A DNA stretch of 64,000 nt from contig CAZWPX010000021.1 of the NCBI GenBank assembly GCA_964636125.1, positions 14,045 to 78,044 on the forward strand, given 5' to 3'. The notes beneath the pieces were generated by a model. The model worked only from the letters and a program-made list of their open reading frames with translations, searched no databases and was not told the origin of the DNA. The stretch comes from an uncultured Desulfobacterales bacterium. Its GTDB lineage: Bacteria; Desulfobacterota; Desulfobacteria; Desulfobacterales; CAJINA01. Positions 5,979 to 8,381 of the stretch are shown in pieces (the first letter of the stretch is position 1; each line of letters opens with the position of its first letter). The position numbers and the translations under genes were made by a program.

Positions 5979-8381
5979 TTACTTTTTCTTTTTAACCGGT
6001 TTGCTCTTTTGGGCTTTCTTACCAACATCAGACTTGGCTGCCTCTGAAACAATGGCACATTTTTCATCCTCAGTAATTATGCCTGCATCAAGAAACGCTT
6101 CTGCTGCATTAGCCACACACGACACATATTTGCCGTGGTTTTTATAATCATCATCGACTGGGCACAACTGGCCTATTGAACAACCCGTTTCATTAACGAT
6201 GTCATCAACTTCGGTAAAATCGCATTCATCCAGATCATTCTCCACACCGTCACCATCAATGTCAGTGTCACAAACATCTCCGAGACCGTCACCATCGAAA
6301 TCAAATTGGTCTGCATTGGCATCAACTGGGCAGTTGTCCTCCAGATCTGTAACCTCATCATCATCATCGTCCTCATCACAGACATCACCAAGCCCATCCT
6401 CGTCAAGGTCTGCTTGATCAGGATTGCTAATGGCTGGGCAATTATCCATGTCGCCACAGAAGTCGTCACCATCGGCATCATTCTCTGCATCATATGGACA
6501 ATCATCGCAATCGTCTCCGAGGCCATCTGAGTCATCATCGGATTGTTCGGGATTATAGACATCCGGACAATTGTCGACATCATCAGAGATACCATCATTA
6601 TCCCTATCAGTTATTGGGCAGTCATCATATAGTTCTTGAATTTCGCTTTCGGAAAGAGCAAAGTTGTAAATGCGAACCTCATCTATGATGCCATCAAAAA
6701 ACTCATCCCATTTACCCGGACTCCCTCCAATCCAGAGATTAGAAATACCTGAGCCTTGTCCTGGCGGGTATCCATAAGAGTATTGCTCACCGTTCAAGTA
6801 GAATTTGACATCGTTTTCTTCATAAACTACCGCAACGTGTTGCCATTCATATATTGCTATTTCCACGTCAGGGAACCAATGTGGGCCACCTGCCCATATA
6901 AGCAATTTACCGTTTTGGAACAACAAAGCCCTTTCATGTGGACTGTTGATGCCATCGTCAGATGATAATATGGCGCTTCTATTCCAAGGATTTGGACTGT
7001 AGATGAGAGATCTCGGCATTATCCAAGCAGACATGGTCATTGTTGGCATTTCAACCGGATTAACGTTCACTGGCGTTGATATGTAATTATCAGTACCATC
7101 GAAACTATAAGCACTGTCTTCATTACTACATTTATCTGCCGTTAGTGTGGCACCATACACATCACCATTATTGCGGAACTCATCATCCTTCCCACTCTCA
7201 TCGTTAGCATTGCCATTGAAGGGATAGTAGGCAACAAGCCCACTATCATATTTATAAATTACAGAATTGATTTCTCTACTGGAGTCATTATCAAGATTTG
7301 CTACTGCAAGATAATGTTGATTATTGATTGTAAAACTCTCCCACTCCATTGCTCCATTTGTTTGTATTGACTGGACTTCGCCGAAAGACGACCCGTCCCA
7401 TTTATAAATTTTGGAGTCGATATTGTAACTCGACCAGTTTGTCAAATTTGCAACTGCGAGATAGGTTTCGTTATTCAACTCAAAACTATTCCAAGCCTGA
7501 GCGCCATTAGTCGGAATTGACTGATACTCAGTGAATGATGTTTCATTCCACTTGTAAATTTTAGATTCGATATTTGGGCTGGAACCATCATGGTAGTTTG
7601 CTACCGCCAAGTACATTTCACCGTCAATTTCAAAACTTTCCCAATCCATTGCTCCAATGGTTGCAATGGGTTGAGGATCAACGAAGGACGATCCATTCCA
7701 TCTGTAGATTTTAGAATCAATTTTGTGGCTACTATTGTCAAAATATTGAGCCACGGCAAGATAGTCTTCCCCGTTAATGGTAAAATGTTCCCAATCCTGC
7801 GCCCCGCTTGTAGGTATAGTCTGGATGGAAACGAAAGACTCTTCATCCCATCTAAAAATCTCAGATTTGACATTATAATTATCGCCACTGCCTACTCCGT
7901 TTGCAACAGCAATATAGGTATTTCCGTCAATCTCGAAACTTTCCCAATCCGCCGCACCACACGTAGGCACGGTCTGAAAATAATTGAAGGTTGTTCCATC
8001 CCACTTGTAAATATAAGAATTTATACAAACCTGATGGGCATCATTCGCTAAATTTGCAACAGCTAAAAAAAAGATCCCGTCAACCTCAAAACTTTCCCAA
8101 TCATTGGCACCAAAAGTTGCAATTTCACTTACTGGATTATCCTTATCAAAACGTCCTGTCATTTCATCCCATTTATAAATAGCTGAATTTAAATTGATAG
8201 TTGATCCAATAGTTCGATTGGCAACAGCGATATATGGAGTTCCATCAATGCTAAAACTTTCCCAGTCCGCAGCACCTTGGGTAGGTATAGCCTGATGTTC
8301 TTTGAATCCAGCATTAGCGCTCATCACAGAAAAAAATATCGCAAAAAAAATAGTTGAAAATAAGACCGCTTTTCGCATCAT
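5979..8381 (-). CDS. Secreted protein with seven EAR/EPTP-like propeller repeats, a LamG domain, a TSP3 repeat array and a Lys-rich tail
   Basis: Signal peptide [24 protein letters not shown] after RBS AGGAGG. Seven repeats of the form GA.DWESF.I.G..Y.AVAN....S.IYKW...F (about 7250-8290). LamG from [13 protein letters not shown] to [17 protein letters not shown] (about 6630-7245). TSP3-type DxDxDGxxDxxDNCP repeats (about 6170-6630). Confidence 0.8.
   Translation of the reverse strand: [800 protein letters not shown]

Follow-up and report, generated by a model that had tools for sequence, protein, structure and literature searches.

A predicted secreted bacterial protein joining a seven-bladed EPTP/EAR propeller to LamG and thrombospondin type-3 repeats

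Introduction

Animal proteins that carry EPTP/EAR repeats are of medical importance: epilepsy and autoimmune encephalitis have been linked to LGI1, ectodermal dysplasia to TSPEAR and Usher syndrome to VLGR1/ADGRV1. The LGI propellers have a hydrophobic top-face pocket of their own that binds the metalloprotease-like domain found in ADAM22/23, proteins for which one would expect no homologue in a bacterial host; LGI1 has a disulfide between Cys260 and Cys286, and in TSPEAR the LamG domain is N-terminal. Here we describe a gene at positions 5979–8381 (minus strand) of a 64,000-nucleotide stretch of bacterial DNA from contig CAZWPX010000021.1, which as a whole we refer to as the window. Its 800-residue product joins a predicted seven-bladed EPTP propeller to a LamG domain, an array of thrombospondin type-3 (TSP3) repeats and a conserved C-terminal module. 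It adds an architecturally unusual member to a bacterial EPTP family that has been catalogued but not characterised.

The EPTP domain of LGI1 is built of seven four-stranded blades, with an N-terminal strand completing blade 7, and has been described as an atypical WD40 propeller (PMC5906670). Its central channel contains a Ca2+ ion held by Asp334, Glu336, Asp381, the carbonyl of Val382 and a water bound to Glu383 (PMC5906670). The published description of TSPEAR combines EAR repeats with a laminin-G domain of the thrombospondin type and does not mention TSP3 repeats, and mutations in its EAR domain are reported at residues 618 and 639, near the C-terminal end (PMC5065119). A review of the LGI family traces LGI genes back to chordates only and does not discuss bacterial relatives. 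Our literature search found no paper describing bacterial EPTP/EAR domains, and two gene names in the IMG database read 'EPTP domain', so that the bacterial family is catalogued but unstudied.

Results

The gene and its product

The preliminary description of this DNA proposed an open reading frame (ORF) at 5979–8381, and we confirm that it is real and lies on the minus strand, running from an ATG at 8381 to a stop codon at 5979–5981. A second in-frame ATG follows at 8378 and the frame is open back to a TTG at 8450; the Shine-Dalgarno sequence is positioned 3 nt ahead of the first ATG and 6 nt ahead of the second. An identical protein in the public collection (P0121) begins at the second ATG and has 799 residues; this form is on record, and an exact-sequence look-up found no entry for the 800-residue or 823-residue form. 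Pfam and NCBIfam scans of the 800 residues detect no catalytic domain, and we saw no sign of a role in defence or in phage biology. The features of the gene, all on the minus strand, are as follows.

8385–8392: Shine-Dalgarno sequence AAAGGAGG, read directly from the sequence
8310–8381: Sec-type signal peptide, residues 1–24, lacking a lipobox cysteine, judged by eye
7248–8306: seven-bladed EPTP/EAR beta-propeller, residues 26–378 (Pfam, AlphaFold2 model, Foldseek, profile search)
6618–7244: Laminin_G_3, a concanavalin A (ConA)-like lectin domain, residues ~380–588 (Pfam PF13385, PDB sequence search, Foldseek)
6186–6614: thrombospondin type-3 calcium-binding repeat array, residues ~590–732 (Pfam TSP_3, thrombospondin-2 and COMP matches)
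5982–6185: conserved unannotated C-terminal module with a lysine-rich tail, residues 733–800 (homologues, profile search, model)
5933–5954: terminator-like hairpin 25 nt past the stop codon, with an 8-bp stem, six GC pairs and a weak T tail (consensus scan only)

An EPTP/EAR propeller

The repeats that first drew attention to this gene, quoted as seven 20-residue strings, are all present verbatim and are spaced by 50–55 residues. The trailing pattern S.IYKW.G..F...Q.I.T, said to follow each unit, does so in six of the seven; in the seventh the last strand is absent, and its pattern is shown by the sequence FKEHQAIPT at the mature N-terminus. The mean blade-to-blade identity of the protein is ~46–48.5%, and at the DNA level an ungapped repeat finder recovers seven copies of a 71-nt core, 150–165 nt apart and 61–73% identical; the repeats are not a product of chance. 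Tandem Repeats Finder reports no 150-nt array in the blade-coding DNA, so the amplification of the blades is not recent, and a very recent DNA amplification was rejected on these grounds.

Assignment of the repeats to the EPTP/EAR family is borne out by Pfam, where EPTP (PF03736) matches in seven stretches with E=3e-92 and 302.9 bits, far above the gathering cut-off of 21. An AlphaFold2 model of residues 25–395, computed from a 45-sequence alignment (A1), has 28 strands in a 7 × 4 pattern, with a mean predicted local distance difference test score (pLDDT) of 96.1 and a predicted template-modelling score (pTM) of 0.91, in agreement with the seven-bladed propeller that had been proposed. In Foldseek searches of the PDB the first seven ranks are all LGI1 EPTP chains (E 1.3e-20 to 6.4e-19), which superpose on the model with template-modelling (TM) scores of 0.87–0.89 (normalised to the target, isolated domain), a root-mean-square deviation of 2.0–2.4 Å and a sequence identity of 18–20%. 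Sequence searches of the PDB give the same answer: phmmer with the single protein finds LGI1 at 1e-12, and a profile built from the bacterial alignment recovers LGI1 (E=2.6e-26) and nothing else at E≤1e-3. The family's invariant residues are kept in all seven blades. Together the model and the searches confirm that the head is a predicted seven-bladed propeller of the EPTP/EAR family, as in human LGI1.

The resemblance to EPTP could in principle be superficial, the repeats belonging instead to a different propeller family such as FG-GAP, YVTN, tectonin, WD40 or kelch. The EPTP domain of LGI1 is itself an atypical WD40 propeller (PMC5906670), and Foldseek returns weak secondary matches of our model to WD40, kelch and lectin propellers. 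These are far removed from the LGI1 matches, however: the best non-LGI1 propeller, the WD40 domain of Lis1, has E 9e-9, twelve orders of magnitude weaker than the ~1e-20 of LGI1. The Pfam scan of the protein finds no other propeller family down to E=1, and the bacterial profile retrieves LGI1 alone. LGI1 thus outranks every other propeller by superposition, and we tested and rejected the other families on the Pfam, Foldseek and profile results; that one of them should after all prove the better home is scarcely credible. The outcomes named in the preliminary description as refuting its reading, a better score to another propeller family without a significant EPTP match or a fold that does not superpose on LGI1, were looked for and did not arise.

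As in LGI1 (PDB 5Y2Z, 5Y31 and 9KZC), the domain matches PF03736 and has seven four-stranded blades, and the protein, like LGI1, would be secreted. The last repeat stops after its third strand, and in the model residues 2–9 (FKEHQAIPT) form an N-terminal strand; the sequence pattern fits with this strand supplying the missing fourth strand of blade 7, in the manner of the N-terminal strand of LGI1. The two proteins differ in their other parts, since LGI1 has a leucine-rich repeat domain that is lacking here, where the propeller is partnered by LamG, TSP3 and the bacterial C-terminal module. The blades are also far more alike in the bacterial protein, with a mean identity of 48% as against 26% in LGI1 by the same method.

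A further point of correspondence lies at the start of strand A, where both proteins have a D-x-E position. The bacterial sequence reads DWE in blades 1–5 and AWN and EWE in blades 6 and 7, respectively, and the closest relatives have DWE in nearly every blade. In LGI1 the segments D334-I-E336 (within NDIETF) and D381-V-E383 (within TDVEYL) share the profile column of the bacterial D-W-E, so that the acidic motif is found in six of seven blades here and in two in LGI1. Because the D-W-E motif aligns with the calcium ligands of LGI1 and recurs across the blades, we propose that an acidic ring may line the channel of the propeller and bind one or more Ca2+ ions.

LamG domain and TSP3 repeats

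The LamG call of the preliminary description is correct, with Laminin_G_3 (PF13385) matching over its full length (profile positions 1–151 of 151) at E=1.1e-22 and 81.3 bits, above a threshold of 27.6. Searches of the PDB by sequence at E≤10 return solely AbnA, a Geobacillus arabinanase, through its domain 4 (2e-8), and an S-layer protein. In a model of the C-terminal half (residues 391–800, mean pLDDT 76.6) the best Foldseek match of the LamG part is 5hon, the arabinan-binding domain 4 of AbnA (1.8e-10), and further fold matches are to lectin domains of trypanosome sialidases, the Hc-N domain of clostridial neurotoxins and the pentraxin PTX3. No thrombospondin-N domain is found by sequence in the PDB at E≤10, and none is among the top 50 Foldseek matches of the LamG. 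On these sequence and fold matches the domain is therefore judged to be a generic bacterial ConA-like module, with a predicted beta-sandwich fold, and not of the thrombospondin-N type. It is 34% identical (BLASTP) to the LamG domain of the neighbouring gene at 3966–5879.

The TSP3 call also holds, TSP_3 (PF02412) matching in four stretches at E=1.6e-19 and 69.7 bits (cut-off 25). The array aligns to thrombospondin-2 (2rhp, E=2e-38) and to COMP (E=2e-33), being 40–50% identical to the calcium-binding wire of these proteins, and motifs of the DxDxDGxxDxxDxC calcium-binding signature are aligned between the bacterial protein and thrombospondin-2. In the model this region has no regular secondary structure, with pLDDT 62–94. 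A TSP3 array is also found in secreted or surface proteins of other bacteria, such as MtsC (NF047638), the Myxococcus cell-cell cohesion protein. The MtsC model gives a partial match of 130 bits over the TSP3 region, far below its cut-off of 350, and the two proteins differ in that ours lacks the MYXO-CTERM sorting signal and has different head domains and a different C-terminal module.

A recurrent C-terminal module

The last 68 residues have no match in Pfam or NCBIfam, and yet they belong to a module of ~55–65 residues that recurs in other proteins, with the consensus GCSI.QLCPC...WKNHG.YVSCVA...E.F...GLITE.EK..IVS.AA.S.CG.KK. The same module ends P0130 (EPTP-TSP3), P0204 and P0207 (both LamG-TSP3) and P0215 (EPTP), as well as a 650-residue Thiomargarita ORF with seven EPTP repeats and TSP3 (locus L015, module at ~4510–4733). 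A profile search with the module retrieves 251 proteins, the best at E 1e-28; in many of them TSP_3 directly precedes the module, and the named sources include Ca. Electrothrix, Binatia and Marinimicrobia. The module always stands at the extreme C-terminus, usually following TSP3 repeats, and its end is basic. In the model it forms a hairpin of two helices, with pLDDT 89–97. Two cysteines of the consensus are missing from our protein (CPV in place of CPC and SDVG in place of S.CG), and its basic tail is longer.

Bacterial distribution and domain architectures

Propellers of this kind are not rare in bacteria. A word-indexed search with the propeller returned 694 proteins, nearly all with PF03736, and among 1.84 billion 50%-identity representatives 1,927 match at E≤1e-3, 1,114 at ≤1e-10 and 482 at ≤1e-30. 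Scanning one genome per GTDB species with a 10-sequence alignment located EPTP propellers at 76 loci, none of them from the source genome of our gene. These lie in Desulfobacterota/Thermodesulfobacteriota, Gamma-, Alpha- and Betaproteobacteria, Chloroflexota, Planctomycetota, Bacteroidota, Spirochaetota, Bacillota, Nitrospirota, Krumholzibacteriota, Patescibacteria and Sericytochromatia, and the survey as a whole thus yields 76 loci across many phyla and ~1,900 matching protein clusters. Cultured carriers include Desulfonema magnum, Heliobacterium chlorum, four Legionella species, Desulfoluna spongiiphila, Burkholderia pseudomultivorans, Paraburkholderia and Caballeronia. Most named sources of the close relatives are environmental isolates or metagenome-assembled genomes (MAGs) and not host-associated.

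The partners to which the propeller is fused are varied, the commonest being M28 peptidases, with S8 peptidases, PKD, DUF11, Calx-beta, dockerin/cohesin, Peptidase_S74, PEP-CTERM, a type IX secretion system sorting tail, LamG and TSP3 also represented; the propeller would appear to be a portable extracellular module. Signal peptides are present in the EPTP proteins of Legionella, Desulfonema and Thiomargarita; those of Heliobacterium and Burkholderia have none, indicating that cytoplasmic EPTP propellers exist. Desulfonema magnum has a stand-alone EPTP protein (L016), and in three further cultured carriers a stand-alone EPTP gene overlaps or abuts the gene upstream.

L058, 4565–7077: Legionella pneumophila subsp. 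fraseri, upstream gene DUF5624
L037, 4523–7113: Heliobacterium chlorum, upstream gene flavin amine oxidase
L071, 3906–7074: Burkholderia pseudomultivorans, upstream gene major facilitator superfamily (MFS) transporter

We also note EPTP stretches in giant proteins of 1,666–5,822 residues (P0242, P0243, P0253, P0270, P0277 and P0328), of which P0242 and P0243 have up to 8–10 stretches matched to the propeller.

Among the 120 matches listed in a full-length search, the order EPTP-LamG-TSP3-C-terminal module is found only in the identical copy P0121. Its parts, on the other hand, are widely represented. P0204 and P0207 correspond to the C-terminal half (LamG, TSP3 and module) standing alone; EPTP-LamG or EPTP-TSP3 fusions occur in P0128, P0130, P0179 and L015, with the EPTP-LamG junction of P0128 (EPTP-LamG-PKD) the same as in our protein, IYK..(D/S)GL(V/I); and P0219 has all three domains in the order LamG-TSP3-EPTP-LamG. 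Like our protein, the bacterial EPTP proteins P0128, P0130, L015, P0219 and L016 have signal peptides and D-W-E motifs in nearly every blade, and their propellers share the 40–59% identity that links it to hundreds of bacterial proteins; P0130 and the Thiomargarita protein of L015 also share its C-terminal module. Since the C-terminal half exists separately and the propeller is joined to LamG or to TSP3 elsewhere in bacteria, these comparisons identify the architecture as a product of bacterial domain shuffling within a broad bacterial EPTP family.

These findings bear directly on the view, taken in the preliminary description, that the protein represents the same toolkit as TSPEAR in a prokaryote and might be a host-mimicking adhesin, in which case it would be a bacterial counterpart or a horizontally acquired copy of animal TSPEAR or LGI. 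Its propeller is of the same family and fold as that of LGI1, and as in TSPEAR a ConA-like LamG-fold domain accompanies seven EAR/EPTP repeats in a protein predicted to be secreted. The gene sits between mobile-element remnants, and some species of Legionella, bacteria that collect eukaryote-like proteins, carry EPTP genes. The correspondence with TSPEAR is nominal only, however. The bacterial order (EPTP, then LamG, then TSP3) is the reverse of that of TSPEAR, if the LamG of the latter is taken as N-terminal; the TSPEAR description mentions no TSP3 repeats (PMC5065119), and the bacterial LamG is of the generic Laminin_G_3 type and not the thrombospondin-N type, a comparison in which TSPEAR is represented by its description only. 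Other bacteria already possess both the LamG-TSP3-C-terminal cassette and the EPTP-LamG junction, and identity to LGI1 is 18–20% as against 40–59% to the bacterial relatives. Most named matches among the closest relatives are bacterial MAGs or isolates, and the eukaryotic ones are from coral and Symbiodinium and not vertebrate TSPEAR. Host mimicry is unsupported and also unneeded, because bacterial EPTP propellers are not rare and their named sources are mostly environmental. With hundreds of unstudied bacterial relatives, the protein is a member of their family and not a bacterial copy of TSPEAR; the sequence relationships indicate that its origin is bacterial and not an animal-to-bacterium transfer of TSPEAR or LGI, a copying event that we regard as very improbable.

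Blade evolution and eukaryotic relatives

Measured in the same way throughout, identity between the blades of one protein is 48.5% in our protein, 41–76% in its homologues and 26% in LGI1. The most self-similar blades are those of P0128 (76%) and P0155 (74.5%), both metagenomic, and a Symbiodinium protein annotated as 'TSPEAR, partial' (P0065) has a mean blade identity of 64%. The near-identical blades of these three proteins suggest recent blade amplification or gene conversion.

We also compared each blade of our protein with the blades of 17 homologues. The mean of the diagonal (blade i against blade i) minus that of the off-diagonal is between -2.6 and +4 points, and only 0–3 of the 7 rows have their highest value on the diagonal, so that positional orthology of the blades is weak or absent at this divergence. 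This fits with lineage-specific amplification or homogenisation, and it also leaves whole-domain trees unable to decide in which direction the domain passed between bacteria and eukaryotes; a whole-domain phylogeny for this purpose was therefore set aside as confounded by the small amount of positional orthology.

Several eukaryotic EPTP proteins, including one from a protist transcriptome (P0161, EukProt), are 32–52% identical to the bacterial propeller. The proteins of the coral Oculina patagonica (P0046 and P0106, collagen-EPTP) and of Symbiodinium necroappetens (P0065 and P0170) are 41–52% identical, which is far closer than LGI1 (18–20%). These similarities between bacterial, coral, dinoflagellate and protist sequences hint at exchange of the EPTP domain between bacteria and eukaryotes.

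Genomic context

The window is part of a bacterial chromosome, with recBCD, a NapA-like molybdoenzyme, a histidine kinase and other housekeeping genes. The NapA-like protein belongs to a 90%-identity cluster with proteins from Thermodesulfobacteriota/Deltaproteobacteria MAGs, and the bearer of the gene is a bacterium, probably a member of the Thermodesulfobacteriota. The features near the gene are as follows.

3966–5879, minus strand: downstream neighbour encoding a signal peptide, an unassigned N-terminal region, Laminin_G_3, a single DxDxDG motif of TSP3-like type, a long coiled coil and a C-terminus of KKK (Pfam, BLASTP)
8856–9520, minus strand: tyrosine-recombinase (phage integrase) pseudogene in two frames, lacking the N-terminal domain (PF00589 in two pieces)
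~8905–8950, plus strand: tRNA-Phe(GAA)-like 3′ half with anticodon loop, T-arm, acceptor and CCA, recognised by eye and overlapping the integrase end
536–1537, plus strand: primase-like gene with CHC2 zinc-finger and Toprim domains, a possible mobile-element remnant (Pfam)

The downstream neighbour is separated from our gene by the terminator-like hairpin at 5933–5954, which is a consensus match only, and it accompanies the identical gene in two independent other assemblies (L001 and L002). Its coiled coil is very regular over ~150 residues, with repeats such as DQIIADLNAIIVQKDQIIGDLNALIAEKEQAIADLNATIDDLN. The protein ends in ...NHGRPDNPGNSNPPGQNKKK, a faint echo of the C-terminus of our protein.

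The suggestion that the gene is located on a mobile island is upheld in part. The primase-like gene, which has small ORFs beside it, the broken integrase and the tRNA 3′ half flank the gene, and the GC content is 41–43% over 4–10 kb, compared with 48% on the left side and 59% past 10 kb, in a window that is a GC mosaic as a whole. No second attachment (att) repeat was found, the att-like 28-mer being present as a single copy in the window. Neither ARAGORN nor Rfam detects an intact tRNA in the window or calls the tRNA-Phe-like half. A decayed integrated element around the gene, not delimited, is plausible.

If this element is defunct, the gene could be a decaying passenger with no current function, for which the broken integrase, tRNA half and primase-like gene on its flanks, the low GC content relative to the region beyond 10 kb and the loss of two conserved cysteines from the C-terminal module might all be cited. 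Set against these, the 800-codon reading frame is intact behind a strong Shine-Dalgarno sequence, the invariant residues are kept in all seven blades of a very confidently modelled propeller, and two other assemblies contain the identical protein together with its neighbour. We therefore think it quite improbable that the gene is a relic.

A second alternative is that the protein acts as a non-catalytic subunit for substrate targeting or scaffolding in a secreted degradative system, its propeller and LamG binding a polymer, polysaccharide or protein, that separately encoded hydrolases attack. M28 peptidases are the commonest partners of the propeller, and S8 peptidases and dockerin/cohesin also occur; the nearest structure to the LamG is a carbohydrate-binding domain of a glycoside hydrolase, and genes for large secreted S8 and S41 peptidases lie within 10 kb. 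The protein itself, however, has no dockerin, cohesin or enzyme domain by Pfam, and a terminator-like hairpin follows its gene. The nearby peptidases are encoded on the opposite strand and lie past the broken integrase and a sharp change in GC content, an arrangement that makes co-regulation with them unlikely. We consider this role unlikely overall, though it has a real chance of being correct.

Some other genes of the region deserve mention. A giant secreted S8 subtilase of ~1,750 residues (~9765–15020, plus strand) starts where the GC content jumps from 43% to 59%; its C-terminal third consists of about six tandem units of ~50–60 residues with the pattern NP.TDELPVNT....Q..P..A.LA.GGFV..W.S....DGSG.GI.AR.F, followed by acidic DxDxDG-like motifs. 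Two proteins with the Lcl C-terminal domain (PF07603), which is named after the Legionella collagen-like protein, are encoded at 23268–24581 (plus strand) and 28060–29082 (minus strand). With these two, the S8 and S41 peptidases and a He_PIG/CarboxypepD_reg protein, the first 30 kb of the window are dense in genes for large secreted or surface proteins, with a strong GC mosaic of 37–59%.

Discussion

We consider it probable that the gene product is secreted and serves, in a calcium-dependent and non-catalytic way, in binding or adhesion. In such a protein, export by the Sec pathway and cleavage of the signal peptide would leave four modules displayed. The seven-bladed EPTP propeller would be the ligand-recognition head, with acidic pairs from six of seven blades lining the channel in which LGI1, with two blades, holds its structural Ca2+, and the ConA-like Laminin_G_3 domain would provide a second, lectin-like binding site. 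The TSP3 array would fold around Ca2+ to form an extended spacer, and the cysteine-containing helical hairpin with its polylysine tail may serve to retain or dock the protein on an anionic cell envelope or matrix.

Several observations weigh against this reading. The signal peptide was judged by eye, with similar hydrophobic N-termini in the homologues (alignment A2) as its context, and Sec export follows from that judgement. Calcium binding by the D-W-E motif is drawn from a sequence alignment and not from model coordinates, and the LamG part of the model is of moderate confidence (pLDDT 44–88). The replacement of two cysteines in the C-terminal module means that its disulfide pattern may differ from that of its relatives. 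Finally, the EPTP proteins that lack signal peptides and are encoded beside an amine oxidase or an MFS transporter imply that the propeller is not intrinsically an adhesion module.

A broader and more speculative proposal, which at present we would not expect to be borne out, is that the bacterial EPTP proteins represent the ancestral pool from which the domain of animal LGI1–4, TSPEAR and ADGRV1 was drawn, with highly self-similar, D-W-E-rich blades that seem to undergo re-amplification or homogenisation within lineages. Proteins composed of EPTP, TSP3 and the C-terminal module, with or without LamG, such as that described here and that of the Thiomargarita MAG, could then make up a new class of adhesins, calcium-dependent and acting between cells or between cell and matrix, in which the module would be an envelope-docking tag. 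Thiomargarita, Desulfonema and the cable bacterium Ca. Electrothrix are filamentous, multicellular organisms, and all carry the propeller or the C-terminal module.

Taken by itself, the protein is one more shuffled bacterial surface protein, and the specific claim of a bacterial TSPEAR fails. Together with its relatives, it belongs to a large, diverse and unstudied bacterial branch of the EPTP fold whose sequences are well behaved and highly symmetric. The leads that it offers are the near-complete D-W-E ring, the high symmetry of the blades combined with a weak positional signal, and the unannotated C-terminal module associated with TSP3 repeats. Carriers in culture, among them Legionella, Burkholderia, Desulfonema and Heliobacterium, are available for functional work. 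With symmetric sequences, an acidic motif in nearly every blade and cultured carriers at hand, two questions become testable: where the EAR propeller originated, and what an unspecialised EPTP propeller binds.

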